Virus record (IMG/VR): IMGVR_UViG_3300036770_004917
Location: 22,044 to 86,043 of that record
DNA: 64,000 nucleotides
Reading direction: 5' to 3' (one strand)
Source of the DNA: a virus
The first letter of the stretch is position 1; each line of letters begins with the position of its first letter. The position numbers and the translations under genes are program-made. Under the pieces are notes generated by a model. The model had not been told where the DNA came from. It searched no databases and saw only the letters and a list, made by a program, of their open reading frames with translations. This document shows positions 1 through 31,891 of this stretch, one piece after another.

Positions 1-2355
1 ATCGTCGGCCTCCATTTTCAGGAGGTTTGCCAATGTGGGCAATCCGTCTGCATCAAGAGAGTTAATATCATCATTTGGCACAATGCCGGAACGGAGACTG
101 CGCGGGAATGACTGTCCCAAAAGGTCACGTGGATTGAAGGGCTTAATTCCTTGTCGTTTATTTCTCTCGGCAATAGCACCTTCAAATCGCGTATCTGGGT
201 TTCCGCCGATTCCCGCCCTGCTGCCTTCGTTGATAATGTCATCAAGTTCTTTGTCTGACATCTCTTCGAAGTTGATACCTAGTAGTCGCTTGACATCCAT
301 TGGGAGGTCATCTGCACGGCTGGCCCCTTGGCCTGTTGCGCCCGGACCTGTGAATGAACGAGCCGAACGAGTCGATGGCACCCTCTGGGCATCTTCGAGG
401 TTTGCCCCATCAAAATACGATTCGCCAGTATCGTCAGGGAATTTGGCATCAGTCAAATTTGCATCAGTAAAGTCGCTATCGGAAATTCGTGATTCCGTGA
501 AATCAACATTCTCCAGATTTGCTCTAATAAATTGTGTCCCCGTAAAAGATGAACGGCCAAAGCCTGCCCCTGCCAGGTTGGCATTTGTGAGGTCTGCTTC
601 GTTAAAACTTGCACCACTCACACCTTGGCCCGAGGTCTCTGATAGATTTGCTCCCGTCAGATTTGCCCTATTGAACCAAGTATTTGAGATATTGGCTCGG
701 TTGAGATTTGCTCCACTCAGATTGGCCTCAGTGAAAGTTGCACCATTAATATTCGTGCCTGACAAATCAGCATCCGTCAAGTTTGCCTTATTGAAATTTG
801 CAAAATCAAATGTTGCTTCTCTTAGGTCCGCCCCACGAAGGTTGGCCCCAGTAAATGATGCATCGTAGAGATTTGCTCCAGTGAAGTCAACAGATACGAG
901 TTCCGAATCTGACATGTCGGCACTATCAAGGTTGGCGTTTTTGAAATTTAGACCAGTCAATCGCATTCCGGACATATCTGCGCCACTGAGGTCTCGGTCA
1001 CCTTGAAGTTCTTCGAGAATCTGCTCTTCCGTTGGTGCTGCGCCCTTCCATTTTGTTGATTCCAGGCGAGAAGAACGCAGGCTGACTGATTCGCGCCTAC
1101 GTTGGTCGCGGCTTCTTAGTGTCTTGTCTGGGGCATGCTTACCACCACGCTCGTATTTGAAACCCTGCTTTTTGATGTCGTTAAGAATGCGCCCAAGGAA
1201 GTCGGGGTTCGACTCCAACTCCCGAACCCAGTTGTCGTCTACATCTTTATAGGTATAGGTTCGGCCGCCATTAAAGGTAACAATTAGTTCCTTGGCATCA
1301 TCGTCCCATGAGATTTTTTCAACAGCACGCGAACCCTCGGTGTTGATTTGAGTTTTTCCACCCTTGCCAACCCTGCTTGCACCAGCGCGACGTGCGTTCA
1401 TTATCGCCCCTCTGGCACGGGCTGGGTCGAGTGGGTTGCGGCTTGCAGTAGCGCCACTCGGTACGAATCTTGAAAGCCTTGATGAATCGTCCCCAAGAAG
1501 CACCTGAATCTGCTCACTCACGGCAGAAACGTCACTATCGGTCAGTCGACCTGCACGACGCAATTTTTCATTTTCTTCGGAACTTCCCTCAAGGAGTGAA
1601 GAAATTTTTCTGCCAAGATTTTCGGGAACCGTAAAACGTGGGATGATGGGACGCTCTAGGGGCGTGCTCTCGAATACGATTCCATCTTTGTCGGCGTCAA
1701 TTCGGCCAGTTACGTCAATGAACACCAAACCGGCTGGGGCGGCACGAAGTCCACCACCAAGGCGGCTTCCGAGACGCTGGCCCAATTTTTTGACCTCAAT
1801 AAGACCACCAGTAATATCTCTATTTTTGATGAGAGACTTATGGGCGACATCGTTCATGCCAACAACCCGCTGTGCTCCCCTGGAGATTGTGGCATCAACC
1901 TTCGCTTGCATGTGTCGCGAGGAAATACCGTCAATACGCGAACGTACTAAGCCTGTTTTGGGATTAAAACCAATTGCTCCGCTGCGCAGCATGGCTGCGA
2001 ATGAATAGGAGCCAGAGTCCGATTTAAATGCTAGCGCCTTGAAAGATACGGCATTTTGTCGGCCACCCAAACCAAATGCGCGTAATTGAAAGTCGCGAGC
2101 AGATGGGGTAACGGACCACGCATTAGTGCGATGCGACTCAACGTAGGAGCGCTTTCCTGGAGTAAATGATGCTCCACTAATAACTGCATCAAGCAGGCCC
2201 TTGACAAATGTGGGGCTATCATTTCGCAGGGCTGTTGGTGTTGACTGGATGATTCCAGAAGGTAGAACTTGCTCTAGCGATTTATGTTCCTGAGAGTTTG
2301 CCCAATTCGCCCACTCCTCCGCCTTTCGGTGTGCTCCGTGGGCGGAAAACGTCAT
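1..2355 (-). CDS. Giant multi-domain head-operon protein, partial (3' end runs off the window); shared N-terminal module, KTSC-like domain, pentapeptide repeats
   Basis: Absent from the ORF track because it has no stop in the window. Manual translation from ATG 2355 (AAGGA upstream) is open to base 1: MTFSAHGAHRK...IEVKKLGQRLGSRLGGGLRAAPAGLVFIDVTGRIDADKDGIVFESTPLERPIIPRF...VEKISWDDDAKELIVTFNGGRTYTYKDV (KTSC-like, ~1200-1340)...ANLRGADLREATFDFANFNKANLTDADLSG (pentapeptide repeats, ~385-995). Confidence 0.85.
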   Translation of the reverse strand, partial: MTFSAHGAHRKAEEWANWANSQEHKSLEQVLPSGIIQSTPTALRNDSPTFVKGLLDAVISGASFTPGKRSYVESHRTNAWSVTPSARDFQLRAFGLGGRQNAVSFKALAFKSDSGSYSFAAMLRSGAIGFNPKTGLVRSRIDGISSRHMQAKVDATISRGAQRVVGMNDVAHKSLIKNRDITGGLIEVKKLGQRLGSRLGGGLRAAPAGLVFIDVTGRIDADKDGIVFESTPLERPIIPRFTVPENLGRKISSLLEGSSEENEKLRRAGRLTDSDVSAVSEQIQVLLGDDSSRLSRFVPSGATASRNPLDPARARGAIMNARRAGASRVGKGGKTQINTEGSRAVEKISWDDDAKELIVTFNGGRTYTYKDVDDNWVRELESNPDFLGRILNDIKKQGFKYERGGKHAPDKTLRSRDQRRRESVSLRSSRLESTKWKGAAPTEEQILEELQGDRDLSGADMSGMRLTGLNFKNANLDSADMSDSELVSVDFTGANLYDASFTGANLRGADLREATFDFANFNKANLTDADLSGTNINGATFTEANLSGANLNRANISNTWFNRANLTGANLSETSGQGVSGASFNEADLTNANLAGAGFGRSSFTGTQFIRANLENVDFTESRISDSDFTDANLTDAKFPDDTGESYFDGANLEDAQRVPSTRSARSFTGPGATGQGASRADDLPMDVKRLLGINFEEMSDKELDDIINEGSRAGIGGNPDTRFEGAIAERNKRQGIKPFNPRDLLGQSFPRSLRSGIVPNDDINSLDADGLPTLANLLKMEADD

Positions 2356-2420
2356 TCCGTCCTTGACGACAATTCCATAGGTAGAATTATCGCTTGCGTC
2401 CGTCAGGATGACATATTGCT

Positions 2421-4457
2421 TCACTTGTTACCTCCAAGAATTGCGACCAGAATGTCTTGTTGCCGCTCGAGAGTGTCCAGCCGTTGCTTTGAAATTGCTG
2501 AAATAATGTCGAGGTGCGATGTTTCTGCTTCGCTAAGACGCCCATCTCTTTGTAGGCGTTGTTTATAGTTTACAAAGTTGAATGCTCGCGCCCGTGTAAG
2601 TAATCGTTTAATTTCTTCCAAAAATATACGGCGCTGCTGCGCCTTCAACTCTTTGAAGTACTGTCCGTATACCCCAGTATTGGAGAGGCTGCCCATCTCG
2701 GCGACGGCATTTTTTTGTCTATCTACAATACTAATTTTTGACAATTCAGTTAATTCTGATGCAAGGTCAGACGTAACTGGAGTATTTTCGTCAGCATTTT
2801 TAAAGACATCAATTGTTGCTGGATTCCTGTTATTGGTTCCATTAACAAAGTCGGACACGAGTAGCGCCGCCATCTTTTTTGGCGATGCTTCGTTCAGGAG
2901 TACGTCCTTGTTGGCGTCACGACCCTGGAAAACATTCTGAACCGAGTCAACGATATACGGAGAGCGTTTTCCGCTGCGAATCTGATAAACATCCGGTGAC
3001 TCAACTCCAAGGTGTTGCTGGAAGTCTGAGGCAAATGAATCATCCAGGTGACTGAAGTCGGAGCGACCCTGCCGCAGCAAATAGGATTTGCCATTAGCAC
3101 CAACTAGTCGTTCAAGTCCATTGCCTAGATTGCGTCGCTTAAAGGTGTTGTTTTCCGACAAGACTTGCTGAAGTATCTCGGGCGCAATCTTGGCTAGCGA
3201 ACCACCGGCTGCGATATGAGTAAGCGCCTCTGATATTGAAGTAATTTTGTCTGATATTTCCGCGACTGATGAACTGTCTCGCGATTCAAGGAGTTCCGTT
3301 GTTGGTTTCTTTGACAGTAGTTCTTTGACCCAGCGTTCTGTTTGGCGTCCATTTTTTTCACGAATCAATTCGTGTGGGCGGACGATTCCTACGAATTTTT
3401 CAGAGTACTTAATGCCATCACCAGTTTCCTCAACCACCTTCTGAAGCCGTGCGGATGGGTTGGTGCTGTTGTCTATTGATGCCGCCATATTGACTGTACG
3501 GCCCAGTTTGCGGCGTTCGCCAACGGTGAGTGGCCGTACCTTTTCTAGGCTTATTACTGAACCGCCAGGAAGAACCCAGGACACATTTGTCACGCCAGTA
3601 TTGGACAGTAACCCGAGTTCATCCTGACCGATGGATGGAACATCATTGATGCGCAGCAGATACGTTGCGCCCTCCATGTCTCTGTTGTCGGGAATTGCCC
3701 TCAATATCTTGGGACTTACCACTGGTTCAAGAACAAATCCATCGCGCCTCACTAGGCGTGCTGCATTGATATCTGGTGCGCCCATCTCCCTGGCTAGGCG
3801 CTCCACTTCGGCGAGTCGGGCAATGGGATTTGCATCAGAAACTCTTGGAATCTGTGGTCTGCGGGAATCGATGATTGAGTCGCCATACTCACCAGCGCCG
3901 AGGGGATTGCCCTCTAGTGACTGGGCGATGGCCCGCTCTCCACGCCTGACCGCCCGCGCAATTGCGGCGATTGCACGCCCCAGTGGTCCGGGGAGGTCAA
4001 ACAACTTCTGACCACACGTAGATAGTTCATTATCAGTGAAGCGCCCACCGTACTGATACCCTTCTGGGCACCGTGCCGTCCTATCTCGGGTGCTCATTCT
4101 GCCACGGCCGCCACCAGGAAGCCCTGGGGTCAGTGCGGTGAAGATTCCGGAACGAACTGGGCTCCTGAGTGGTGAAATATCACCCGGCAGCGCATATGAG
4201 CCCGCTGCTTGTAGTGTTTGGCCAATTCGGCCAGTAGAACCAATGAGGCCAACACGCTTTACGTTGTAAGAGTCACGCAGCCCACCAACATGGCAGAGGG
4301 CCTTGAATGAAACAACATTGGGGGTTGACGCTGCGGAGCCGTAAAAAATAGAACCTGCAGCCAAGGATTTCGAATTGTGGTCCAATATGACACGACGAAC
4401 GAGAACCTGGCTATTAGGGCAGCACTTGCTCGGCTTTGTCATGTCAATTGTCTTCAT
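2421..4457 (-). CDS. Head-operon protein with RCP-x-G motif and a C-terminal degenerate HipA/PI3-4-kinase-like domain
   Basis: ATG 4457 overlaps the upstream TGA (ATGA). Contains RCPEGYQYGGRFTDNELSTC. The segment GKSYLLR...ASDFQQHLGVESPDV...LLVSDFVNGTNNRNPATI resembles the D-x-x-x-G-N-x-D-R-H-x-x-N kinase motif with catalytic substitutions. Confidence 0.6.
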   Translation of the reverse strand: MKTIDMTKPSKCCPNSQVLVRRVILDHNSKSLAAGSIFYGSAASTPNVVSFKALCHVGGLRDSYNVKRVGLIGSTGRIGQTLQAAGSYALPGDISPLRSPVRSGIFTALTPGLPGGGRGRMSTRDRTARCPEGYQYGGRFTDNELSTCGQKLFDLPGPLGRAIAAIARAVRRGERAIAQSLEGNPLGAGEYGDSIIDSRRPQIPRVSDANPIARLAEVERLAREMGAPDINAARLVRRDGFVLEPVVSPKILRAIPDNRDMEGATYLLRINDVPSIGQDELGLLSNTGVTNVSWVLPGGSVISLEKVRPLTVGERRKLGRTVNMAASIDNSTNPSARLQKVVEETGDGIKYSEKFVGIVRPHELIREKNGRQTERWVKELLSKKPTTELLESRDSSSVAEISDKITSISEALTHIAAGGSLAKIAPEILQQVLSENNTFKRRNLGNGLERLVGANGKSYLLRQGRSDFSHLDDSFASDFQQHLGVESPDVYQIRSGKRSPYIVDSVQNVFQGRDANKDVLLNEASPKKMAALLVSDFVNGTNNRNPATIDVFKNADENTPVTSDLASELTELSKISIVDRQKNAVAEMGSLSNTGVYGQYFKELKAQQRRIFLEEIKRLLTRARAFNFVNYKQRLQRDGRLSEAETSHLDIISAISKQRLDTLERQQDILVAILGGNK

Positions 4458-5089
4458 TTGTCGCATCCACAGTCTTCATCAAAAGGTGCATCCATGACGA
4501 TGCTTTTGCCCATCATGTCATCGCCTTCAATTTCCCAGTTGGCGTCATCGCGCAGGTACTTGCAGAACTCCATTTCCATGTCGGCAAAATCTCGCAGAAC
4601 CAGAAATGCATGCTTTATGTCATCCTGTGTCACAACGTAGTTTTCCTCAACGTCCATCATGTCTTGTTTGATATTGAGGAATTCTGAGAAATAAAAGTCT
4701 TCGCTGAGCGACTTCTTGCCACCGAAGCGAGAATTCATTCGTTTTTTCCAGTCGGCATCTGACCAAATTGAGCCATTGACGACATTCTTCAGTTTACGAC
4801 GACAGTTCTTCATGCCGGGGTGATGACAGCCCTCATTCGGCCACAAACCAGTAGTTTCGTGATGGAGCCAAGCGCAGATATTATTCAGTGGGTACAACTC
4901 TGGGTGGTCGGCAAGAATGACCTTGCAGCGTCTAAATCCACCAGGCTTGCGCATAATTGGACGCCAGTATCGTAGTAGGCGTTCGAGGTTTCCGCGACGT
5001 GGGCCTCGGCCCTTAAGGATGTCTCCGGTAATTCGTTCTTGCGGTAAGTCTAGAATTACGTCCTGTGGCGCCTTGTAGTTGTACTTCAT
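4454..5089 (-). CDS. Phage head-region protein (LRYW...PGGFxRC...CAxLH...TGxWP motif)
   Basis: 211-aa ORF. The Cys/His motif resembles a module I recall from actinophage head regions; function unknown. Confidence 0.6.
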   Translation of the reverse strand: MKYNYKAPQDVILDLPQERITGDILKGRGPRRGNLERLLRYWRPIMRKPGGFRRCKVILADHPELYPLNNICAWLHHETTGLWPNEGCHHPGMKNCRRKLKNVVNGSIWSDADWKKRMNSRFGGKKSLSEDFYFSEFLNIKQDMMDVEENYVVTQDDIKHAFLVLRDFADMEMEFCKYLRDDANWEIEGDDMMGKSIVMDAPFDEDCGCDK

Positions 5090-5100
5090 TATTTCCTACT

Positions 5101-5442
5101 TTAATCCTGAATGTTTTGGAACATGGTTTTTAGAATCAACTTACCATTGGATGTTTCCCAGAATAGGCCATGTACAGATGGCGGCAGTCGTAAAACATTA
5201 TACTGCAAATAAATGTAGGGAATGAGGTCCCCCTCGAATAGTCGTAGAGACCCATTTGTCATAAGTGATTCTGTGTCGTCGTACGTCATTCGTCTATCTG
5301 CGTATGGGTCTTGTCCTGTTAGTAACTTTCGCACAAATCCAACACATTGGTCAGCGGTATATTTTGAAGTTCCTAATTGTGGGCCGGAATCTCCAAAAAA
5401 ATCATTTATTTGTTTTTTGTATTTTTCATCAGTCATTTTCAT
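5101..5442 (-). CDS. Hypothetical protein, translationally coupled to the 1084-aa zincin protein
   Basis: 113-aa ORF with an ATGA overlap with the upstream stop. Confidence 0.6.
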   Translation of the reverse strand: MKMTDEKYKKQINDFFGDSGPQLGTSKYTADQCVGFVRKLLTGQDPYADRRMTYDDTESLMTNGSLRLFEGDLIPYIYLQYNVLRLPPSVHGLFWETSNGKLILKTMFQNIQD

Positions 5443-8400: not shown

Positions 8401-8693
8401 ACGAGCAAATCATCACCTATCGGCTGTGTTTTTTTGAGAAATATTCTGTTCCACTTGTCTCGTTCTTCTGGGGATGAGCCAGGAGACCATAGAAACTTAT
8501 GAAATTTAGAAAACTTAAGTTCTTGTATTGTCGGCGTTGTAGTAATGAAATGGAAAAACTTAACAAAATCAATTTGTCCATCCGGGGAAACGACGGCGCC
8601 ATCAAGCATCTGCTCACCATATGGCCGCAGAAGGTAATAGACCTTATTCCCTTCGTATGCCCCAACGAGAATGGCTTTTGTTTTTACAGCCAT
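5439..8693 (-). CDS. Large head-operon protein with DGDGDG motif and zincin-like metallopeptidase (HESAH)
   Basis: 1084 aa with an AAGGAG RBS. Contains FKALG...DGDGDGFVDDGLPTMRP (~8133-8192), VGVHESAHGLH (~7030-7055) and a distal GEFVAE (~5610). Confidence 0.75.
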   Translation of the reverse strand: MAVKTKAILVGAYEGNKVYYLLRPYGEQMLDGAVVSPDGQIDFVKFFHFITTTPTIQELKFSKFHKFLWSPGSSPEERDKWNRIFLKKTQPIGDDLLVGAKIITSLGEEEVKRKDYRIRADEFRRKIASTGSLPMEKTVLSRKSVFNMRGIVGFKALGPLLSGKPSVDGDGDGFVDDGLPTMRPFIPGFDFLPDSSTNTSLRSITTRRADKAADRSATREEMLSAIDDVAGIVSRRHNDGKKIKTRKDAMDILKRLIPSFGLSPNDKARSSIEFLDSKADSDSLKPWELAYINQFLLMFGDDASRNEVTWRLRSMDPRIAAQGAGGYTSVPLGAKDWEFSQKFSDEGPRLLPKKNRKPLMTIGYSAETDKQNSRIYLLGLLMKQDKRNFTALSYAISKALRDDLNEMPDKSKIMNALQYKYGLDIEPGIASMSEIINQLLQGNNLIGAESQVPSSALGQDLLQTIWNVVNNSADAIAQVDSSFDKDLLVSRTLRAIQQGSIADILKSLRKTREAYQNSLNSPGLKMHLANGEELLDKWLTVNSKLVGVHESAHGLHFLRILESNRKKAQKLRDEYLQRYIDRQKEAGLTPETFKELQKQLPIEAFYTDVFKDEIREYAQNSPELLRRDILMLTTGGTAGRLIPDFQKLNGTSESLVGLTSTITSAIEIIKMQPPGVGRYDAARAMGAIGPFSVAGFMAKNPDSIGKSNFDDLVKQAKAEMVEQFIQQMESWLGQPIFMGDKPVALNGYMADLLNKMQASIPEVSGILGLDSILEFKAGDSITPAIASLLINPAIQKREQSARRNIMRGIRMFESDGSDSLTLGKVSPAIVLSTLGFPDIKGDDGNVMGGGRPEDVKPLIDALIGVSSLVRETEKQLQMGVQNIEQAMSSRSEPDAVDLPSSFGDISLSEFMEMPIDDVLEKLFTGIDDSLSAVANAINSGTMSSRLWENFEIMPKTGRTELSPLNQSEIKIINDIARKIGLPAGVQSSAGGTGLSSLPAQGYSSYQATLTDPTTWLGSTKWSIGEFVAESAVADFMGIPFSQIADSGLITRELTNEELQVLNKLMQWVFSGRLPSDRMSEAFNP

Positions 8694-18790: not shown

Positions 18791-18813
18791 TCCGGGCTCC
18801 AATCCCGACTGTA

Positions 18814-20382: not shown

Positions 20383-20498
20383 TGTTGCGACTCCTTGTAG
20401 TTTGGACCACAGCGAACTGTTTTACTCCATTGGGATAGTAGTCGCGGCGACGACCTCCCGGTGGAAAGGTTAAATATAAATTGTCTCCTGGGTTTAGA

Positions 20499-20504
20499 GT
20501 ATAC
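20499..20504 (-). promoter_or_regulatory. Putative -10 element (TATACT) for the scaffold-like gene, implying a ~110-nt leader
   Basis: Minus strand reads GCTGTATACT in the 155-bp intergenic gap. Confidence 0.45.
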
Positions 20505-20537
20505 AGCAATTATGTGCTGTCATTTCTGCAACTTTTG

Positions 20538-23500: not shown

Positions 23501-26500
23501 TATTGATGAACGACCTATCTTCATCATCAATGTCTCTTCCATTGATGATTGAGTCAACTTCAAGCATGTCAATGTAGGAGCCAACCTGGTCGTTGCTTGC
23601 TAGTTGATTGAGTTCTTCTGCTAGTTCTGACGCTGAGGTGCGATTCATTCCTACTGGGCGAGACGTGCCACGTGGCCCGGTGTCAAATAATGACCGCTCC
23701 AATGCTGAGTCATATTCAAGAAGTGACAAGACATCCGCCCAGTCCTCTTCGGTAAGTCCAAACCTTTCGGCTGCATCGTTATAGCCTGATGCTTGCTTTT
23801 TCGCTTTTTTGTATGATGCTGAAGTGAGTGCTGCCTGACGCTCTTCGCGAACAAGGTGCTGGGCTGCAGCAAATATTTCATTTACTTCGCGTTCAATAGC
23901 CAATATTGACTCATCAAGAAATGCTGAACGATTTTCCATTTCGGCATTCGGCCATTCATAATTAACGGCATCAAATTGTGCATCTAGTTCTTTCAACTCA
24001 TCTCGTGAGTCATTCAGTTCATCTAGCAATCCACGAACTCTTCCGACTATTGCGTCAGTTGAACCTGCGCGGAAATCCTCTACCGTATCTCTCCATACAG
24101 CGGGTATCCGAGTACGTCCGCTACGGGTACTTGCTGGACGATTGGCATTAAGAAGTTGTTGGTCATCGGGGATAACTGCCGATATGGCATTACCACTCAC
24201 TAGGTCACGAAGGACCAATTTATTAACACCATCTCGCATTCGCCCAACCGAAGCAACCGAATATCTAGCGTCACCCTGTGATGCTAGGGATTGCATGAAG
24301 TTATCGGGGAGAATGTCACCAGGTTTGACATCGCTGCCAAATGATATATAAGACATTGAGCCATCACTATTTTGGGATGACAATGGACGACCGAGCGGCC
24401 TGAGTTCGCCACCGGCTCTCATTGCCGAAAGACCATTTATGTATTGTTCTTTCGCATTGTTGCCTGGGGCGATAGTGCTTCTCGTAATATTGAGCCATTC
24501 CCGAGAAGATGGACCTTCTTTGCGTTTTCCGGGAATCTTGGTTGCCCGGCGCTTTTGCTCCTGTTCTTGCCTGACTTGTTCTGGCGTCAATTTTTTCATG
24601 TCACCAGTAACTTTTTTGTCCCCAGTGACATTCCACTTTTTGCGATTCTTGCCGCGCTTGGAGCGTGTCGATGGGATGTTACTACCTTGTGCTGTATCGT
24701 CGATTTCGTCGCCCATTTGTGTTGCGATACTTTGTCCACGGACACTGCGCGTACCACCATATTCATACCCTTCGCCACGTGGTGTTGGTGCATCTGTTTC
24801 ACCCTCCACTCCACGGATAATGTCACCAATCGCGCTTTTTTCTGAATTTCCGAGAACACCAATGGATAGAGTTTTATCCTTCTTCGGGATTTCCTGAACT
24901 CCGGTGCGTCTAGCAAAATCAATCTCGTCTTTATCACTTATGGAATAAGCAAGAATGTCGGCGCCAGTTTCAGCATAGATACGCTCAATTGCATCTATTT
25001 GTTCTTCGGTAAACCGAACATCGCCAGCCTCGAAGCCAATATATGGCCTTATCTGCTCAAGTACTTTTTCGCCTCTTGAATTTATTTTTTCAGTAATATT
25101 CCCACGACTCATGCGGAATCGGACCACCCCATCGTCGTAGGCGTTAAGGTAGTCGTGTTCGTCTCCGTGCTCACCAATAACTGGATAAAGCGTCCCATCT
25201 GGATACAGCCATGCTCCAAAAAAGTCAGAATTAATAAACTCATCCACGGTCATGAACTTCATCTGTAGCGGTCGTTTTTCCGAACCCAAACGAGCAGAGT
25301 CGTCAGCCTTTGCCCTCATCCGTAGTTCATCACCAATTGCTGCCAATATGTTTGCCGCCCCCTCATCTGGCTTTCCTCTCATATCAACAATCGCTCGTAT
25401 GTCCTGCTGAAGGTCTCTCAGCATTTCTGGCGTCATTGATGGCGAACGCAGTGGATAATCGGCACGACCACTCAGGAATCTAATTTCCCTCAACGTAGCC
25501 CTATTCAACTTCCCGTTGTCTAGTGACTTTGTTATATCGTCAAGGAGTTTGACTAGGGCTGCATTATTAGCGAGGCGTTTTTCTTGCATTTGTTTTGTAA
25601 TTTGCTCACGCCTCTGCTGCATGTCTGCCTTCATGACGGCCAGGGCCCTTTGTTCTCTTGGGGAGATATATGAGCGAGTAGAGCGGGTAGAGGATGACGC
25701 AAGCCCATCCGTGCCAGTCGTTCTGCCACGCATTCTCTTGAACAGTCGGCCGATTCCGCCCGGTTCGCGCTCTGTCAGGGAATGGTCTCCCGAATTGGCA
25801 AAAATCTCTGGAGCAACGAGTCCGAAAGACCGAAGAAGTTTGCCATTTTTATTCATATCCATTATTTCTGACGCACTAAACCAACCGATTTCAGTGTTTT
25901 CCCCATCTCCGATTTTCACATCAGATAGGTCTCGTCTGCCAACTTCGTAGACATGGGTGTCGTATGCCCAATCCGGAGCACGTTGGTCACGGTAGGAATA
26001 AACCGGCAATAGCCCCTCCAAGTCACCGCCAACTTCCTCCCTAAATTCCGTCACCGCTGTCTCCATCGGAATTTCAGAACTGTCCTTATCCTTATGGACA
26101 CCACCAGGGAATGACCATTGTCCGCCCCCAGAACTCATCCATGGGGCACGTCTGGCTAGTAGGTATTCATAATCTCCGGATAGCCCCCTACGGCGTCGCA
26201 CCAAGGCGCCAGATGCGCCATACCGTCCATTGAATTTTTGGCCAGTAATGGAGAAGTAGTACCCCTCCCCAGTCTCCTGATTTGAGCCGCCACCTCTTGG
26301 TGCAAAGAATGGATATGCGGGTGGCTTTAGTTTGCCTGCACGAAGAAGGGAAACTTCCCTGCTGGATATTCTGTCCGCATAATAGACACCATCATCACTC
26401 TGCAGAATTTTGTATTTTTCCCACGGGCTTGCCGTCTTTTCTTCTTCTATTTCCGCAAGACCCTCGGCAATATCTTCATCTCGCGATAATTCACCTCGAC

Positions 26501-29500
26501 GGCGAGCAACTCTATTGCGGCGGGGGGATTGCTCATCGTTTGCTCGCATCGTTCGCGAGCGAGTACTAGGCATTCCCGTTGATGTCCGCGCATCCCTGTC
26601 CGAACTTAGTCTCGCCCATTCTGGGATGAAATCTGGTTTTTCTACGAAGTCTTCCGTTCCAAGGAATTCCTTTATTTCTTTGGCAGAAGGGGTCCTGGAT
26701 GTTAGGTCAAACTCACCGATGGGGAACAATGCCGGAATGGTATCGCCGCCATAATCACGGCGTTTGCGGCTGACTGATACTGCTGGAGCATCAGAAAGTT
26801 GCACTATGTTAGCAATGGCGTCAATTTGTTTGTCATTTAATCCTATTGCATCGATATTTACGTTTCCGGGGGGACCGAAAAGTAGGCGAACGAGGCCATC
26901 ATCGAATGCATCGCTGTATTCATACTCGGCATCATGTGACATAACCGGATAGATGCGGCCATCAGGGTAAATCCAGGCGCCATGCCAATGCGAGTTAGCA
27001 AAATCTTTTGCAGTAATAAAGTCGTTTGCAAGTACTCTTTCTTCGCCACCAAGTCTTTTTGGCCTATCTCCTATCGCGCGTTCAATCTGGCGAACAATTC
27101 TTTCTTTTTCTGGAGAGGGCTTAACTAGCGCATTCGTAAGAGAAAGAAGTGCTTTATTGGTTCTATCTTCGACAAAACCATAAAGTGGGCGAACGTTTTG
27201 CCTCATTGATGAATTGACGGCTTTGAGCACGTACTCCACGTACCCCCGTTCGCCATCTACCGTCCCTATGGGGCCAATTATTTCTCGCAATTCTTCTGTG
27301 CTCAGGTTTTCCACTGCGTCGCGAATCTGTTGCACTGCATTACGCAATTCGGCATTACTCTCCAGCATGGAGCGAGAATGTTCGTCCCCCAATTTTGCGA
27401 CTTTTGTCATTCTTTCCCGCGAACGTTCCCTATTTTCTTGGACTTTCCGCGTCTTTTCGTCTTCTGCGCTAGTTGTCGTGCTGCGCGTTGACAGGCTGTA
27501 CCTGGCGCTACGAGTACTTCCAGAATTTTCTTTGTTCCACTCGTTGGCAACTCTCTCAAAATATCCAGTTGCTGCATTCAGTGCGTCTGTGTCTGATTCT
27601 GTTCCGGTCCGTGCACTGCTCGCGAATTCAATAGATGCAATAGGTTCAACTTTTTCAAAAACCTGATATTCGCGTTCACTGCGGGGGAAACCAATTGGCC
27701 CTGCGTACATGGTGGCTTGCGACTTAGGAACCGCCGCCAAATAGACTCGGCTTGCTCCTTCATCATTTCTGTCACGAGCGTAACCGATACCAATTCTTAT
27801 ATCTGCTGGATAGTAAGAAAGATGTTCGCGGCCAGATTTTGCGTAATCATGGAATTGTTTATTATCGGCAAGCCATTGTTCTCTGGCTGCAATCGTCTTT
27901 TTTAATCGTTCAATCTGTTCAGTGTTTACACCAACTTTTTCAAATTCTTCAAGTTCGCTACGAGTTATTTCAAGGTCTTTTTCCGCCTGCTCGTAAGCGC
28001 GAATTAGCAGATTGCGACCAGCCTCATTTGAGCGCTTAGAATTTTTGGCACCACCGATAATTTCGGATGCCTCGCCAAAACCGGCAGTGAATTGGGGGTC
28101 CAGTACGCCGCCATCAAGTACGGGGACACCAGTATGCGTCAGGAATAAGACATCTTCGTTTTCAAAATCACCATACTGCTGACCGGGGTTCTCTGACTCG
28201 ACAGCACCAGTGATGAGGGCGCGACCTCTTTCGGCCAAGCGAACGAATTCTGGGTGGTCACGGAGGTTGTCCATGTCCACGTTTCGTGGAGTTTCTCCGC
28301 GCTCAAACTGCTCAATAACCCTAAGACGCTCGACAGCATCTTCTCGTAGTTCTATTAAATTATTTCTATAACGATTAAAGGCCTCTCGTTGCTCTTCTGG
28401 CGTTTGAACCTCACTAAGTTCTTCTTTGGTGAGATTGGTCATGCTTCCACGACTGCGCCTACCACTAACGCGTGGTTCCGCTACATCAAAATCTTTCCCT
28501 AGCCAATCGCCTGTTTCTTCCCAATGGGCAATTGCTTTTTCAATGGAATCTAGTTCTTTCCCCAATTGGGAGTAATAGCCCTCAAGCGCCGATTTCCCAA
28601 AAATCCTGCGATATTCAGGGTCTTCCTGGCGTAGTGATGTTCGTTTCCGTGTTGACCGGAGGCCATCAATGGATACGCCATTGTCGTTCCTCTTGGTAAC
28701 CCTGGGAGCATCAACTGAATCAAGCAACTCATTTCTAATTAGAATTCCGTCAAGAGAATCCCCCGCCAGGCGGGCAAGCATGTCATCTGATGCTTCGGTC
28801 AATGGGGTCTGGCGCACAGAACGACTTGACCTACTGGAGCGAGTACTTGGTGGGTCAAGTTTGTCAAGCAACTCGTCTATAGGGCCGTCGTAGTCTCTGA
28901 TTGTTTCTTCAAAGCGTCCCCTTGCGCGTTCTGGTTTGTCTGGCGAGGCAACAATACCAAGCCAACGTGCAGCAATCTCCATTAGGTTTGACCGAATAAA
29001 GACTTCCCTATCTTCATCGGTGAGGCTCTCTAGGCCCGGTAATTCTCGTAATTTATTCCAGAAATCCTTATCGCGAGCAAGCGAAATCAGGGCAAGGATG
29101 TTTCCCCACTCACTATGTCTGTCAAATGTATTTCCTAGAGCGAAATGACCCATGAGGTCATGGAGCATTGCAAGTGGTGAGACTAAGTAATTGCTTAGTT
29201 CGCCATGGACCTCCGGCACTGCATGTGGGTCTGACATGAGTTGTAGATATCCATGGATAAAAAAGTCATTATCTATCAGGCGCTTGGCAACTTTTGCACG
29301 TTCATTGCGCGGCACTTTTTCCAATTCCGGAATAATATAATGCTTAAGAAGCATCGCCGCTATCTCGTTAGTGCGTACACTTAATGCCACATTTACGGAT
29401 GGCAACTGTTCTTTTAGATGTTCTCTGTATTTTTTGTTAAAAAATTCATGGAAGGGGAGTTCTTCTCCATCATCGAAGGGGCGCGCAAGCCGAGGTTTTT

Positions 29501-30506
29501 TCCTACCTTCAGGGTCTTTGATAAAAATGGAATCAAAGAATTTATGCCAGCGTCCATACTTCTTGCGTGGCTCTACCTCGTCAAAAATTGACAGAATCGT
29601 CTCGCTGTCTGGAATCTCCGTATTGTGGTAATCCCTATTGTCAGGGAGCAAACGGCGCAAGACCGTATTCGTTGGCATTCTCAGCGAGATTGTTCCATCG
29701 TCGTGTACTCGGAGTTCTGACCCCTCGATGATGTCATCAATGGTCATGTCTATATCTGGGTGCGACCCAAAACCATCAATGAGTTTTTCCCGCCTAAGAA
29801 TGCCGGAACGTTCACGACGACCCATTGATTGCCAGTCGTCTCGCATGGCTTGGAGATTCATTATCAAGTTGGAAACTTGATTTTTAATGCGTTTCTTTTG
29901 GTCATCCGTCCAATCGCCGGACTCCATGAGGCGCTTCTCTAATCCATTACGAATATCCACCCAGAACTGACTGTCGCTAATCGCCTCGTCGCCGTCTGTT
30001 CCTTTTTTGGGCCTCTGTGTCGGCTCAAGGATGTCTCCTAGGGGGATTCGTTCTCTGATGCTTCGTGTACTTCGTACTACGCGACCGACATTCGGACCCG
30101 GGCGCACGGACGTATCAATTGCGCCATCTACTTCGGCGTTGCTTGCAATACCAACGCTTGAGTCTTTATCAATTCTTGAAACAATGCTCTGCAGTTTTTC
30201 CTGGCTAAATGAGATATCGGTATTGCCAGCACGCCGCTTGCGCTCAATCTCTTCAGAGTCGCCCTGGGTAAGTTTTGCAACAGACTTTGCAATACTGCGT
30301 GGAACGATGAATCTAGGAATAATGGGTCTTTCAAGGGGTAATCCCTCAAAAACAATCCCATCGTTATCGGCGTCTACTCGTCCTGTGACGTCAACGAACG
30401 ACATCCCAGGCGGCGCAGCACGAAGGCCACCACCAATACGCTGACCGAGTTTTCCGCCCAGTGCTTTAGATTCGGCGTCTAGCCCTAACTCAGCAAAGCC
30501 GGGCAC
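20538..30506 (-). CDS. Giant polyvalent-type protein (3322 aa), probably made as a -1 frameshift fusion to the prohead protease; HDxxGH peptidase-like, ART-like, NUDIX, duplicated GAWxYPDG and KTSC-like domains
   Basis: HDLMGHF...FDRHSE (~29110-29165); LTHTG...HLSYY...VYLAAVP...EREYQV (~27660-28145); NUDIX box WSFPGG...ETAVTEFREEVG (~26025-26120); GAWIYPDG and GAWLYPDG; SNVSFVAYDGNRNELII...GGIYRY (~23175-23255). The GTG start has no good RBS. Confidence 0.8.
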   Translation of the reverse strand: MPGFAELGLDAESKALGGKLGQRIGGGLRAAPPGMSFVDVTGRVDADNDGIVFEGLPLERPIIPRFIVPRSIAKSVAKLTQGDSEEIERKRRAGNTDISFSQEKLQSIVSRIDKDSSVGIASNAEVDGAIDTSVRPGPNVGRVVRSTRSIRERIPLGDILEPTQRPKKGTDGDEAISDSQFWVDIRNGLEKRLMESGDWTDDQKKRIKNQVSNLIMNLQAMRDDWQSMGRRERSGILRREKLIDGFGSHPDIDMTIDDIIEGSELRVHDDGTISLRMPTNTVLRRLLPDNRDYHNTEIPDSETILSIFDEVEPRKKYGRWHKFFDSIFIKDPEGRKKPRLARPFDDGEELPFHEFFNKKYREHLKEQLPSVNVALSVRTNEIAAMLLKHYIIPELEKVPRNERAKVAKRLIDNDFFIHGYLQLMSDPHAVPEVHGELSNYLVSPLAMLHDLMGHFALGNTFDRHSEWGNILALISLARDKDFWNKLRELPGLESLTDEDREVFIRSNLMEIAARWLGIVASPDKPERARGRFEETIRDYDGPIDELLDKLDPPSTRSSRSSRSVRQTPLTEASDDMLARLAGDSLDGILIRNELLDSVDAPRVTKRNDNGVSIDGLRSTRKRTSLRQEDPEYRRIFGKSALEGYYSQLGKELDSIEKAIAHWEETGDWLGKDFDVAEPRVSGRRSRGSMTNLTKEELSEVQTPEEQREAFNRYRNNLIELREDAVERLRVIEQFERGETPRNVDMDNLRDHPEFVRLAERGRALITGAVESENPGQQYGDFENEDVLFLTHTGVPVLDGGVLDPQFTAGFGEASEIIGGAKNSKRSNEAGRNLLIRAYEQAEKDLEITRSELEEFEKVGVNTEQIERLKKTIAAREQWLADNKQFHDYAKSGREHLSYYPADIRIGIGYARDRNDEGASRVYLAAVPKSQATMYAGPIGFPRSEREYQVFEKVEPIASIEFASSARTGTESDTDALNAATGYFERVANEWNKENSGSTRSARYSLSTRSTTTSAEDEKTRKVQENRERSRERMTKVAKLGDEHSRSMLESNAELRNAVQQIRDAVENLSTEELREIIGPIGTVDGERGYVEYVLKAVNSSMRQNVRPLYGFVEDRTNKALLSLTNALVKPSPEKERIVRQIERAIGDRPKRLGGEERVLANDFITAKDFANSHWHGAWIYPDGRIYPVMSHDAEYEYSDAFDDGLVRLLFGPPGNVNIDAIGLNDKQIDAIANIVQLSDAPAVSVSRKRRDYGGDTIPALFPIGEFDLTSRTPSAKEIKEFLGTEDFVEKPDFIPEWARLSSDRDARTSTGMPSTRSRTMRANDEQSPRRNRVARRRGELSRDEDIAEGLAEIEEEKTASPWEKYKILQSDDGVYYADRISSREVSLLRAGKLKPPAYPFFAPRGGGSNQETGEGYYFSITGQKFNGRYGASGALVRRRRGLSGDYEYLLARRAPWMSSGGGQWSFPGGVHKDKDSSEIPMETAVTEFREEVGGDLEGLLPVYSYRDQRAPDWAYDTHVYEVGRRDLSDVKIGDGENTEIGWFSASEIMDMNKNGKLLRSFGLVAPEIFANSGDHSLTEREPGGIGRLFKRMRGRTTGTDGLASSSTRSTRSYISPREQRALAVMKADMQQRREQITKQMQEKRLANNAALVKLLDDITKSLDNGKLNRATLREIRFLSGRADYPLRSPSMTPEMLRDLQQDIRAIVDMRGKPDEGAANILAAIGDELRMRAKADDSARLGSEKRPLQMKFMTVDEFINSDFFGAWLYPDGTLYPVIGEHGDEHDYLNAYDDGVVRFRMSRGNITEKINSRGEKVLEQIRPYIGFEAGDVRFTEEQIDAIERIYAETGADILAYSISDKDEIDFARRTGVQEIPKKDKTLSIGVLGNSEKSAIGDIIRGVEGETDAPTPRGEGYEYGGTRSVRGQSIATQMGDEIDDTAQGSNIPSTRSKRGKNRKKWNVTGDKKVTGDMKKLTPEQVRQEQEQKRRATKIPGKRKEGPSSREWLNITRSTIAPGNNAKEQYINGLSAMRAGGELRPLGRPLSSQNSDGSMSYISFGSDVKPGDILPDNFMQSLASQGDARYSVASVGRMRDGVNKLVLRDLVSGNAISAVIPDDQQLLNANRPASTRSGRTRIPAVWRDTVEDFRAGSTDAIVGRVRGLLDELNDSRDELKELDAQFDAVNYEWPNAEMENRSAFLDESILAIEREVNEIFAAAQHLVREERQAALTSASYKKAKKQASGYNDAAERFGLTEEDWADVLSLLEYDSALERSLFDTGPRGTSRPVGMNRTSASELAEELNQLASNDQVGSYIDMLEVDSIINGRDIDDEDRSFINKSASDILENAILSVRRKRKLADAKQAVINTTATELDEQAVLAISPSTRSVASPRITSKATVKMGTDLRNSEQLFPGRSSKFANSNVSFVAYDGNRNELIIGRNGGIYRYGGMNDEVIDTFLKSRKTVDASLNQLDKDSSYTVSPDGSRRGLVPGLAQLLERDARRVKLSSTETSLIKNLAGAYSASSRDEVAPVDPIRAHSIAKKLFANQEAAAAINIVDALEDSRSARLLPDGIAPMYRPLPKTPSNTISIILDNNDAGIVRDELAELRKRFANNREITSAIDVYDKLIAGGQSGGLKTAFSMSPAEYEFIRDGITALRSSNMSDGTASAALLDHAASSPKLKFDATEFPQTNGTDVNSLFNSGAPYSLNKERRQKLLDWAQGSNMKVAQSLANEKFKTIATWKSLDAIREFSTPTRSAVGSLAPRKGGDEAGTPFAEMAPSDYADMAPLDKLSWIKENMVQGGGDKGLRQSDAIKQAREVMDALNMVQDNLKRRDNYESVIYGNGSGTAATPDFAKSWESLGMKTRDILDNESRSVFYNDFRNLNHMQAADVVRRLRPEADKRRTGVSEIPDNDLNLIWDDIMASSQKLLDAIDKRRELGLEDEDLDLPPVPVRSSRVQSPVRPTRSGIQLPVDITAPPKATAPSPTRGEDSPVSTPSNPTAARVRRQRIASGIGSIIGEYQSELDSVYSTRYQDNRHSQVWDDVKKLFADADGAGIDFGIGNIDDAIDILDDYLTSDFVVDAMDGKPNGFAPRASVIGKKYVQNSIDRASGTRDYLNKLRNELMTDEFIDKAPGRGAPLVRSMPEMDIVPKTRYVPRIRGRAIDAYFAARKNEVMQSTRSTRSSVKEGRAEIRAERTKFNELLNSLDREISKADDPRHSAALNLLKKTLTRQKSGKLSDRRTNAGALYLTQDEIDEIIEALYVALDRQVERGGEARMALFGEMAELMAKAAMATFINRTAEPVHSRTITKINENGDEVEIALND

Positions 30507-30518
30507 TATTATTTTTTT
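30458..30518 (-). promoter_or_regulatory. Putative programmed -1 ribosomal frameshift signal (A AAA AAA plus downstream stem-loop)
   Basis: Minus strand reads GGT TCA AAA AAA TAA TAG; the -1 frame reads AAA AAA ATA ATA GTG CCC into the 3322-aa ORF. A GCCCGGCTT...GAGTTAGGGC hairpin can start 7 nt after the heptamer. Confidence 0.7.
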
Positions 30519-31891
30519 GAACCACCAGCCTGGCCATAGAGAACATCGTCAATTGTGAGGGCGATATTCTCTAGTGCGGTGATTGCTTCCTGTGTAAGGC
30601 CGTTGGAGATATGAATTCCCTGGTGGTCAACCTCAGCGTCGAGACGGTGATAATCAATTACTGGGTCAAGCAAACTCTTTACATGGAATGCTTCTTCCGG
30701 CGTGCATAGGACGGTAAAAACCTCTTCTTCTACTGGGTCCTGTTTTGAGCCGGTTAAACCCTGAAGTAGGTCAATTGCGTATTGCAGTTTCTCTGCGGGC
30801 AGTGCCGAACCGCTTGTTGCCACATCAATGATAATGTCTGCCGCTTCATCCATTGCCTCATCTAGAGACTTGCCGCCAGAAGACAGAAACATCATTCCTG
30901 TCGGCATGCCAGAACCTGGCTTGACACTCATTGGCATTGATGGCATTTGTGATGGAACGACAACTGGTGCTGTTGGCATTGTGCTCTGCTGATTACGCAT
31001 GCCAATTTTTTCTGGCTTACCAAACATATATTCGCCTGTCTCTTCCTCGCGATGGTAAGACAGGCGATAGGTGACTGAGTTGCCATTTCCGGCATCACGA
31101 TTGAAAGTAACTGAATTCTCCGTTGCGTGAATGATGTCCAGGGGCAATCGCGACCTGCTCATTAGTTCCATGGCAAGTGCATTGCGTGCCTCATCGGGGA
31201 GTACTCGCGCTTCACCTTCACCAAAGATGTCCTCGCGCTCCTGTTGGCGCTGTGGCGCTATTGCGGATACCTGACGCACGACTTGGGGTAGAACTGGCCG
31301 ACCTACAATTGCGGCCCCACTAGGGATTCCGGGCATATGATGCATGCGAGGCATTGGATTCCCGCACTTTTCTGCTTCGTCGCTCTTGACGGAGATGGTG
31401 CCAGTAAGTTGGTTAGCGCCATGAAGAACTGGACTAACCTCATACAATTCAACTTCATGAAGAATATTGGCCTGTGTACCGGGGTCAAACGTAGCATTGA
31501 GCGTCTTGTACCCAATACTCCACTCTTGCTCCTGGCCAAAGAATGCAACACTAGCAAAGGCTTCGCGACCCTTTTCGGTGGCCAGGTTGAATTGAACCTT
31601 CGCAAAAAGTCCACCCACGCCAGCCTGCTTCATCTTCATTGGTAAACGAGGGTCGCTTGCAGGAACCTCGTAAATTTCAAGAACCTTGCCGATGGGGTCA
31701 TTCCAACTATGCCCCCAGACCACCCGAGGCTTGCGGCGCTTGAGGCTTTCAGTAAAGGCGCCAGTAGCGACAACATCGCCGACCGAGTCCTTGTTGCCAA
31801 CTGCGGCCACAAAGCACTCAACAATGCCTTGTGCCTCGTCAATGTTTATCTGGCCATTCAGTGCCTTGAAACTAATTTGGTCTGTAGACAT
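30509..31891 (-). CDS. HK97-family prohead (maturation) protease with long C-terminal extension
   Basis: VGNKDSVGDVV..GAF..SL, WGHSWNDPIG (His), EWSIGY (Ser) and EVELYEVSPVLHGAN motifs; immediately downstream of the portal. Confidence 0.92.
   Translation of the reverse strand: MSTDQISFKALNGQINIDEAQGIVECFVAAVGNKDSVGDVVATGAFTESLKRRKPRVVWGHSWNDPIGKVLEIYEVPASDPRLPMKMKQAGVGGLFAKVQFNLATEKGREAFASVAFFGQEQEWSIGYKTLNATFDPGTQANILHEVELYEVSPVLHGANQLTGTISVKSDEAEKCGNPMPRMHHMPGIPSGAAIVGRPVLPQVVRQVSAIAPQRQQEREDIFGEGEARVLPDEARNALAMELMSRSRLPLDIIHATENSVTFNRDAGNGNSVTYRLSYHREEETGEYMFGKPEKIGMRNQQSTMPTAPVVVPSQMPSMPMSVKPGSGMPTGMMFLSSGGKSLDEAMDEAADIIIDVATSGSALPAEKLQYAIDLLQGLTGSKQDPVEEEVFTVLCTPEEAFHVKSLLDPVIDYHRLDAEVDHQGIHISNGLTQEAITALENIALTIDDVLYGQAGGSKK

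Follow-up and report, generated by a model that had tools for sequence, protein, structure and literature searches.

In bacteriophage HK97 the genes for the prohead protease and the capsid protein are adjacent, and no cargo is encoded with them. In phage T4 a short N-terminal signal loads the internal proteins IPI–III and Alt into the prohead and is removed by the prohead protease; the internal proteins are injected and act against host defences or on the host RNA polymerase. For phage SPN3US, PMC10052503 describes a prohead protease that takes N-terminal propeptides of 20–254 residues from head proteins, the abundant E (ejection) protein gp54 among them, and that prefers Ser at P1'. Processing of head and ejection proteins in SPN3US, phiKZ and 201phi2-1 is also treated in PMC7411985 and PMC5694885. 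For the polyvalent proteins of Iyer, Burroughs, Anand, de Souza and Aravind (2017, PMC5512222), the prediction is that they are packaged and reach the host along with the DNA. Here we describe a head operon of an uncultured phage that runs through and beyond a 64,000-nucleotide stretch of DNA (hereafter, the window), which corresponds to bases 22,044–86,043 of one 86,043-bp virus contig, the IMG/VR record IMGVR_UViG_3300036770_004917. The operon suggests a capsid-cargo system of an HK97-type, myovirus-like phage, in which very large precursors would be loaded into the procapsid, cut by the S78 protease at Lys sites and at linkers, and ejected, a reading that we consider moderately probable.

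The minus strand of the window carries a single long operon that encodes, in order, the portal, the protease and proteins of 3322, 522, 3372, 1084, 113, 211 and 681 amino acids (aa), followed by an open reading frame (ORF) that is cut by the window edge. In the full contig this last ORF has 3123 aa and is followed by one of 2763 aa, and the gene of the major capsid protein (MCP) is found only after both. The cargo genes between the HK97-type protease and the HK97-type MCP span approximately 46 kb, about half of the 86-kb contig, and include four giant ORFs of 2763–3372 aa (hereafter, giants 1 to 4 in the order of the operon). A first-pass annotation had noted a block of about 30 kb with at least five large proteins up to the window edge; the block is real, and the full contig extends the cargo to about 46 kb with the remainder of giant 3 and with giant 4 before the MCP. 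The contig has no terminal repeats and is probably a fragment of a larger genome, since related contigs reach 125–151 kb. The features of the head operon are listed below in window positions, with a slash marking a presumed cut.

32000–34051, minus strand: portal, 683 aa, first gene of the head operon (Pfam Phage_portal, 3.6e-45).
30509–31891, minus strand: HK97-family (S78) prohead protease, 460 aa (Peptidase_S78, 9.4e-14; phrog_80 head maturation protease, 5.4e-29).
30512–30518, minus strand: A7 slippery run in the sequence TCA AAA AAA TAA TAG at the end of the protease gene.
20538–30506, minus strand: giant 1, 3322 aa, with N-terminal S-K/A-L-G and tag, then modules separated by STRS.
30222–30467, minus strand: tag module of giant 1, aa 14–95 (K-A-L-G-x8-G-G-L-R-A-A-P...D-A-D-x-D-G-I-V-F-E-G...E-R-P-I-I-P).
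18814–20382, minus strand: acidic 522-aa protein, conserved, with a Cys-rich N-terminus and positional homologues in the related genomes G001, G003 and G004.
8684–18802, minus strand: giant 2, 3372 aa, with V-K/A-L at about aa 54, an RCPxG...FTD...C module, HEFGH at aa 589 and a KTSC-like module.
5439–8693, minus strand: 1084-aa protein, with G-F-K/A-L-G at aa 153–158, a short tag (DGDGDG...RPFIP), SLRS at aa 200 and HESAH at aa 549.
4454–5442, minus strand: two small conserved proteins of 113 and 211 aa, in constant order in all four lineages.
2421–4466, minus strand: 681-aa conserved protein without linkers, with V-S-F-K/A-L at aa 52–57 and an RCPEG...FTD...C module.
1–2424, minus strand: giant 3 (3123 aa), first 808 aa within the window, with V-S-F-K/A-L at aa 126–131 and the tag at aa 212–295.

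Assignment to the HK97 type is based on the S78 protease and on a capsid protein that is homologous to gp5, with a delta domain and an N-terminal extension of at least about 100 residues. The MCP matches Phage_capsid (PF05065, 7.4e-49) from residue 157 and the HK97 gp5 chains in the PDB with E ~1e-55, such that MCP residue 155 aligns with gp5 residue 119. The prohead protease is laid out as a protease domain (approximately residues 1–175, with the PF04586 match over 18–171) and a 280-aa C-terminal extension; no solved homologue was returned by a sequence search of the PDB. The departure from HK97 lies between the two genes, which are adjacent and free of cargo in that phage, whereas here they are 46 kb apart and a giant polyprotein is attached to the protease.

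The protease was used to search IMG/VR, where 126 stretches matched, the best 80 of these were used and 125 relatives were confirmed. The block was retrieved in full for three other lineages, namely G001 (terminal repeats present; 150,897 bp), G003 (124,933 bp) and G004 (90,311 bp). In all three the order of genes is identical: the portal comes first, followed by the protease with giant 1, the acidic protein rich in Cys, giant 2, 1084-like protein, two small proteins, 681-like protein, giants 3 and 4, and MCP, with a distance between protease and MCP of 24–46 kb. Relative to the phage of the window, the MCPs are 75–84% and the proteases 45–62% identical. Each giant has a variable middle between conserved N-terminal and C-terminal parts; in giant 1 the conserved C-terminal part amounts to approximately 340 aa. 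In G001, giants 3 and 4 have shrunk to 152 and 199 aa, which are the N-terminal parts alone, and the giant 1 that is fused to the protease has grown to 4898 aa (loci L093/L094); cargo here seems to shift between carrier genes.

The giants contain the tetrapeptide STRS 35 times, against 0.45 expected from composition (here and below, the nulls are simple ones of composition or placement, and contigs that are related to one another do not represent independent samples). The sites in giant 1 are at aa 146, 554, 997, 1006, 1314, 1606, 1946, 2126, 2381 and 3175, and at 1606 and 3175 two copies overlap in tandem (STRSTRS), so that this protein accounts for 12 of the 35. In giant 2 they are at aa 1642, 2040, 2560, 3078 and 3246, and in giant 3 at aa 684 with eight more past the window edge. 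No STRS is present in the portal, the protease, the 522-, 681- and 652-aa proteins or the MCP. The early description of large proteins divided by (S)TRS/LRS linkers is borne out by these numbers. The 33 non-overlapping STRS copies are written in 30 different 12-mers, which indicates selection on the peptide and not a DNA repeat. A repeat at the level of DNA was considered as the origin of the motif and is ruled out by this diversity, which includes both codon families of Ser (AGY and TCN) and of Arg (CGN and AGR).

Relatives are enriched in other tetrapeptides, with GMRS found 37 times in G003 (0.20 expected), GMSS and GMRS together 30 times in G004 (0.36 expected) and GFAS 14 times in G001 (0.10 expected); GLAS, GFSS, SMRS and SSRS are the further linker peptides seen among the lineages. 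The survey covered the 53 loci in which the giant sequence amounts to 1200 aa or more, and many of these loci are the same phage from different samples. The class [GS][FMLTS][ARST]S provides the most enriched 4-mer in 41 of these loci and one of the top three in 49, the remaining loci being L030, L048, L053 and L078. In a tree built from 37 distinct protease domains, the linker motif tracks lineage: GMRS occupies two deep branches, GMSS/GMTS and then SSRS/SMRS/STRS fall within one superclade, and GFAS, GLAS and GFSS are found in the other.

The sites themselves are in part retained. Within 10 residues of the orthologous position, a G[MFL][RSA]S is found in nine of 17 pairs of STRS site and relative (G001, G003 and G004), whereas random aligned positions give 1.0 ± 0.96 and none of 2000 trials reached nine. 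For example, G003 and G004 both have GMRS where giant 1 has its STRS at aa 3175, and the SLRS at aa 200 of the 1084-aa protein is GMRS at the same site in G004. Sites that persist while the peptide changes across the genome are expected of many targets of one reader and are hard to explain for plain spacers. The rewriting of the linker peptide genome-wide at retained sites thus points to one trans-acting recognition factor, which would most likely be a protease.

The flanks of STRS have a hydrophobic fraction of 0.221, against 0.271 at random positions (SD 0.072, n = 33), and flanks of low hydrophobicity also surround the linkers of G001, G003 and G004. Hydrophilic flanks are what plain spacers would have, and they are compatible with giants that stay uncut as beads on a string, in the manner of the N4 virion RNA polymerase or P1 DarB, with the tetrapeptide acting as a docking or modification site or as a hinge. 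A kinase-like Zeta_toxin module is present, and phosphorylation of Ser would be one example of such a modification. The N4 virion RNA polymerase is packaged unprocessed, as stated in PMC5512222. A spacer, however, does not explain some 35 exact tetrapeptides per genome with free codon choice, nor a peptide that is replaced in step across a lineage, orthologous sites included, and the protease junction and the Lys sites common with the MCP (see below) point to proteolytic maturation. We therefore regard uncut giants as improbable.

Cutting at the linkers is in keeping with the way in which homology is distributed along the giants. The giants of the window's phage were compared with those of other lineages and with paralogues, and of the 20 non-redundant homology blocks of module size (60–450 aa) only three cross an STRS, against 9.2 ± 2.0 at random, a count as low being reached in one of 2000 simulations. 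The blocks shift between different giants, and many modules are common to different giants. Thus giant 1 aa 633–987 matches aa 952–1323 of giant 4 in G003, where the segment lies between GMRS at 926 and 1333, and the NUDIX module of giant 1 (aa 1363–1594) matches aa 152–382 of giant 1 in G004, between linkers at 96 and 457. Close relatives differ by whole modules: L005, whose protease is 95% identical, is without giant 1 aa 156–603, a module that the linkers at 146 and 554 enclose, and about the same stretch is absent from L009 and L011. In L027 other modules replace giant 1 aa 596–1020 and 1575–1928, with breakpoints 12–35 aa from linkers. Exchange of modules at the linkers with conservation of the tags, which the first-pass annotation had offered as a check on its proposal, is thus observed in the comparison.

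Relatively few of the modules could be named. The NUDIX domain of giant 1 (aa 1445–1553) is significant in Pfam (7e-07) and matches RenU in the PDB (2.5e-08), the only significant result of the PDB sequence searches of modules. In giant 3, KTSC (aa 365–407) and pentapeptide repeats (approximately aa 470–665) are significant in Pfam, as are Zeta_toxin/AAA_33, pentapeptide repeats and DUF3721 in giant 4, which has 2763 aa and lies outside the window. Giant 2 has two paralogous DGHHR modules, each bounded by STRS (aa 2040, 2560 and 3078); they are reminiscent of ParB/Srx by motif only, match phrog_2859, and have free serine kinases (SerK, E 0.21) as their best PDB matches. An HExxH motif is conserved in position in giant 2 of the window's phage, G001, G003 and G004, and recurs in the 1084-aa and giant 4 proteins of three of these four genomes; a motif of the type HE..HWTGH is found only in relatives. 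Pfam searches of 17 inter-linker segments and three whole proteins, with matches considered at E ≤ 1, gave nothing significant for ADP-ribosyltransferase (ART), ParB or zincin domains, and no ART or MuF domain was found by Pfam in the cargo proteins. PHROGs returned only families of unknown function for the giants, no feature of signal-peptide type was seen in them in the searches that were run, and most modules match no family. The initial domain list is therefore kept for NUDIX and KTSC, both significant, and for zincin and ParB at the level of motifs, and is dropped for ART. Several unrelated domains of effector type are found within single chains, in a context of portal, terminase and capsid genes, as in polyvalent proteins. 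By analogy with these, and from the few recognisable kinds of domain, we infer roles in anti-defence or host takeover.

The second sequence signal is a Lys motif. The head module contains the pattern [FY]-K-[AS]-[LMV] six times, where 1.54 are expected, and the remainder of the contig contains none, where 0.81 are expected. Each of the six falls either in the first 155 residues of its protein or at the delta-domain edge of the MCP (protease 8, 681-aa protein 54, giant 3 128, 1084-aa protein 154, MCP 95 and 108), and none is found along the thousands of downstream residues of the giants. Looser forms, V-K-A-L at aa 54 of giant 2 and S-K-A-L at aa 16 of giant 1, are kept in orthologues. At the level of sequence, N-terminal leaders are thus seen to end in a motif that is also present at the delta-domain edge of the MCP. 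The first-pass annotation had assigned a Lys site to each large protein; N-terminal Lys motifs kept in orthologues agree with this. The 522-aa protein has no such site. That protein is also without a linker, and its composition is scaffold-like.

In the MCP, the sequence E-F-K-[AS]-L is kept in six of six proteins. Alignment with gp5 leaves three conserved Lys residues, K96, K109 and K138, as candidates for the delta cut, and the candidate Lys that is followed by Ser-Leu resembles the HK97 site, K103/S104-L-G. The second candidate site, before S-[VI]-G-x-x-F, varies (F-K, S-N, Y-R, L-Q) and contains no copy of the linker. The simple rule that the linker is a copy of the capsid cut site was tried and rejected, since F-K-[AS]-L of the MCP is constant in all six lineages and the linkers are not.

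In giants 1, 3 and 4 the sequence K-x-L-G opens a module of approximately 70 residues with the elements G-G-L-R-A-A-P, D-x-D-x-D-G-I-V-F-E-G and E-R-P-I-I-P (hereafter, the tag), in which K, G, DxDxDG and RP.IP are invariant in the alignment. The 1084-aa protein has a shortened tag, as does the 652-aa protein whose gene follows that of the MCP, and the 3372-aa and 681-aa proteins have in common the RCPxG...FTD...C module. The shared short N-terminal motif that had been noticed earlier can therefore be stated as K-x-L-G...DxDxDG...RPxIP in the 3322-, 3123- and 2763-aa proteins, in short form in the 1084-aa protein, and as RCPxG in those of 3372 and 681 aa. A profile of the tag retrieved 560 cluster representatives with E ≤ 1e-3, and 146 at 1e-10, among 1.84 billion proteins. 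The tag is mostly found at about 14–30, 205–230 or 390–570 residues from the N-terminus, the last being just behind a protease domain, and in proteins of up to 5358 aa. In the 10 tag-bearing clusters that were looked up, the members are metagenomic except for one partial NCBI entry of 96 aa, and one member is labelled by its source as an HK97 family phage prohead protease.

Two further proteins bear on the distribution of tag-like sequences. The 652-aa protein (contig 2257–4215, minus strand, outside the window) matches DUF6321 (2.7e-30), has I-K-A-L-G followed by D-A-D-G-D-G, and near its C-terminus repeats G-S-A-D-x-x-E-R-R four times. A very basic 151-aa protein, rich in Lys, Pro, Ser and Thr (window 42910–43365, minus strand), contains F-K-A-K-A-K-D-G-D-G-D-G-I-L-Q-D-G...R-R-K-P-G-R-P-K-K. 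The DxDxDG core of the tag is here next to a G-R-P that resembles an AT hook, and the protein may bind DNA and be packaged, its gene lying outside the head operon.

The giant 1 gene is joined to the protease gene in an unusual manner. Its GTG start overlaps the TAG at the end of the protease gene in the -1 frame, and slippage by -1 on A AAA AAA, or an mRNA with a single A added, would give the continuous sequence ...G-G-S-K-K-I-I-V-P-G-F-A-E-L-G-L-D-A-E-S-K-A-L-G. A slippery heptamer of the type X XXY YYZ thus stands just before the stop codon, and the -1 frame is open and conserved at the protein level. The earlier remark that the two genes are positioned for a fusion by frameshift is upheld, with the A7 run in TCA AAA AAA TAA and the -1 frame open into the 3322-aa ORF. 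The A-run is present in all 14 relatives with split ORFs, as A7 in 13 and as A8 in L014. In L015–L019 the zero frame continues for four codons, and the conserved G-L-D-L-E-S-K-G-L-G is read in the -1 frame up to 93 nt upstream of the first possible start codon. No Shine-Dalgarno sequence precedes the GTG of giant 1, and one is present for the protease, 522-aa, 1084-aa and giant 3 genes. In all 14 loci of other lineages that were examined, protease and giant 1 form a single ORF of 1568–3742 aa, joined as ...A-V-K-A-L-G and then the tag. By this comparison, -1 recoding at the A-run is well supported. Given recoding and no independent start, giant 1 would be made only as a tail on a protease that works in the procapsid.

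A downstream stimulator of frameshifting was also considered. A 4-bp stem, GCCC...GGGC, follows the A-run by approximately 7 nt in 11 of 11 sequences; its covariation is weak and it overlaps conserved codons, and as a stimulator this weak stem is unconvincing.

The start of giant 2 is of a different kind. L-E-P-G-M, which lies ahead of the first Met, is kept in G003 and G004, and this implies either a non-ATG start codon or some other coupling to the upstream gene; a TTG is present 11 nt past the stop of the 522-aa gene (window 18790–18816, minus strand).

The packaging of the giants is deduced from position and motifs only, and they could conceivably be late cytoplasmic or exported proteins that happen to share the head operon, with functions in takeover, superinfection exclusion or as toxins against grazers. 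A precedent for the last is provided by ADP-ribosyltransferases of freshwater phages, which are read as anti-grazer toxins in PMC6802176. ART domains and features of signal-peptide type were, however, not found in the searches run here. The fusion or recoding to the prohead protease is kept in every lineage examined, the N-terminal motif is common with the MCP delta edge, and the synteny from protease to MCP is conserved, all of which make a role outside the virion very unlikely.

The capsid-cargo reading can be set out as a series of steps. The head operon would make the cargo precursors, which are the four giants and several smaller proteins, and conserved N-terminal parts would bring them into the assembling procapsid; giant 1 would enter by its covalent link to the protease, through -1 recoding on the A-run. 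The S78 protease would trim leaders at [FYV]-K/[AS]-L, the motif that is also at the edge of the MCP delta domain, and would free itself from giant 1 at S-K/A-L-G. The strings would then be cut at S-T-R/S into some 35 or more separate modules, among them NUDIX, Zeta-kinase-like, pentapeptide-repeat, KTSC and DGHHR modules and many of unknown kind, and the released modules would stay in the head and enter the host with the DNA. The linker would represent a recognition code that drifts with lineage (GMRS, GMSS, SMRS, STRS; GFAS, GLAS, GFSS), and modules would be shuffled at linkers. The gene order, the motif counts, the conserved recoding site and fusion, the modules bounded by linkers and the turnover of linkers at orthologous sites are observed; that the cargo is packaged, cut and ejected, which enzyme cuts it and at which bond are inferred from sequence.

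Several observations weigh against this scheme. The main weakness is that the linker code is distinct from the Lys code, in that the MCP keeps F-K/[AS] while the linkers go from Arg to Ala or Ser, and the linker tetrapeptide is missing from the MCP, the protease, the portal and the conserved small proteins. Since the MCP site is constant and the linkers change, one protease would have to accept both codes. Eight of the 17 orthologous-site pairs have no linker in the relative, and three of the 20 homology blocks do span one. The S-F-K-A-L at residues 7–11 of the protease may be no more than the first strand in the fold of that enzyme. In lineages whose protease molecules all have a fused tail of 3000–5000 aa, the mass to house would be large if the protease were present at a copy number like that in HK97. 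Finally, the conserved HExxH domains of the cargo could be the enzyme that cuts the linkers.

This last point deserves separate treatment, as it leads to a scheme in which the S78 protease acts at the Lys sites only and a cargo-borne HExxH metallopeptidase cuts the linkers, either in the procapsid or after injection. Giant 2 has HExxH at a conserved position in each of the four genomes, and the 1084-aa and giant 4 proteins have it in three; the difference between the two codes, and the lack of linkers in shell proteins, also speak for this scheme. The pairs G/F, G/M and G/L would suit a zincin with a preference for a hydrophobic P1', whereas S-T of the window's own lineage would fit such a preference poorly. 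No metallopeptidase is significant in Pfam, where the best matches are Zn_peptidase_2 (E 0.44) and DUF6782 (E 0.0029, below its cut-off). Moreover, the final Ser of the linker is invariant across lineages and matches the P1' Ser at the cut sites of HK97 (K/S) and of the herpesvirus assemblin (A/S). Release of polyvalent domains by embedded metallopeptidases has been proposed (Iyer et al. 2017, PMC5512222). On these grounds we consider cutting of the linkers by a metallopeptidase unlikely; uncut giants and giants outside the virion rank below it as less likely still.

Returning to cutting by the S78 protease, a putative rule by which a residue that is hydrophobic or beta-branched is followed by any other and then by Ser or Ala would cover F-K/S, F-K/A, T-R/S, M-R/S and F-A/S. 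The sites of HK97 (K/S) and of the herpesvirus assemblin (A/S) resemble it. In its fullest form, the capsid protease would read two codes, a fixed Lys code in the shell and leaders and a drifting code of four residues in the linkers, so that some 35 or more proteins are delivered and the dose of giant 1 is set by -1 recoding. We put this forward as a tentative proposal, with less than even confidence.

Only three columns of the protease alignment separate lineages with linkers of the R type from those of the A type, namely position 48 (Glu in the window's phage versus Lys), position 105 and position 132. At position 48, Glu goes with linkers that have Arg before Ser and Lys with those that have Ala, charges that would fit a substrate pocket. 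The R and A types represent one deep split on the tree, and the correlation is a lead and not evidence.

The comparison with the described systems can now be made. As in SPN3US, phiKZ and 201phi2-1, many non-shell proteins would be packaged and cut at a short motif that is used on the capsid protein too. Those phages have proteases of the T4 gp21 type with an A-x-E rule, and nearly all of their known cuts remove N-terminal propeptides of single proteins; neither a fusion of protease and cargo nor a linker code specific to lineage is described for them. Cutting after Glu, as by gp21-type enzymes, is not what is seen here, where the protease is of the S78 family and K, R, A or S precedes the presumed cut. 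T4 IPI–III and Alt are small single proteins with a tag of about 10 residues and another protease family and motif, whereas here the conserved N-terminal parts have 10–210 residues and are followed by the retained DxDxDG tag. The cargo system may work like that of T4 internal proteins or SPN3US and is not a member of that family.

The likeness to polyvalent proteins is found in the very long phage chains of unrelated effector-type domains near portal and capsid genes, which the authors compare with viral polyproteins released by embedded peptidases (PMC5512222). In that paper the assemblin-like peptidases are C-terminal, whereas the protease here is N-terminal or joined by -1 recoding, and the word 'linker' is missing from it, whereas here one exact tetrapeptide specific to the lineage stands between modules. 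The hallmark domains of polyvalent proteins are MuF, ART, ArdC-type metallopeptidase and ParB-like domains, of which MuF and ART were not found here, and the giants have conserved ends with a variable middle. The organisation by tag and linker had been called undescribed at the outset, and the literature search agrees: neither linker-coded cargo polyproteins nor a frameshift at a prohead protease gene was found described in the full text of open-access papers and preprints. Related architectures could be contained in the online domain tables of Iyer et al. 2017. It is already known, then, that prohead proteases trim head proteins that are packaged (T4, phiKZ, SPN3US), and polyvalent proteins and HK97 maturation are known as well. 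What differs here is 46 kb of cargo inside a head operon, an exact tetrapeptide rewritten by lineage, a fixed second Lys code common with the shell, and a protease joined to the first string directly or by -1 recoding.

Among cultured phages, the MCP is closest (46–50% identity) to those of Brevibacterium phage Cantare and of the Gordonia phages GMA6 and ChisanaKitsune. Judged by these MCP relatives only, the hosts are likely to be Actinomycetota. In the Cantare and Gordonia phages, cargo-like genes (an RNA ligase, a VIP2-like ART and a 969-aa protein) lie between portal and protease, and the tag was found in none of Cantare, GMA6 and ChisanaKitsune. Cantare and ChisanaKitsune were considered as cultured models and set aside, as they share the MCP but have no tag and carry their cargo-like genes in that other position.

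The plus strand encodes a large terminase, Rad52, a PD-(D/E)XK nuclease, ParB-like proteins, tail tube, tail chaperone and genes of tape-measure size. A class II (B12-dependent) ribonucleotide reductase (44571–46496, plus strand) and a PAPS-reductase-like gene (50102–51238) are ordinary auxiliary genes at this phage size. Past the head block and outside the window (contig 1108–2241, minus strand) are encoded staphylococcal-nuclease-like, DUF305 and DUF732 proteins. The DUF305 and DUF732 families are common in Actinobacteria, and these genes agree with the actinophage affinity of the MCP.

The family is large, with 125 protease relatives and 560 tag cluster representatives, and as the members looked up are almost all metagenomic, it would represent a substantial piece of phage biology that is without a cultured model. 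For programmed frameshifting in phage late operons, well known from the tail chaperone, the end of the prohead protease gene would be a new location. If the capsid-cargo reading is true, 46 of the 86 kb are payload and not machinery, far above the cargo of T4 or P1, and cassettes between standard joints would explain the fast gain and loss of modules by which relatives with 94% identical proteases differ. The linkers specific to each lineage offer a test of the co-evolution of protease and site, possibly with pairs that are mutually orthogonal. Should the two codes indeed be read by one capsid protease, these phages would hold a natural series of orthogonal protease and cut-site pairs, and would trade modules directed against the host as cassettes.

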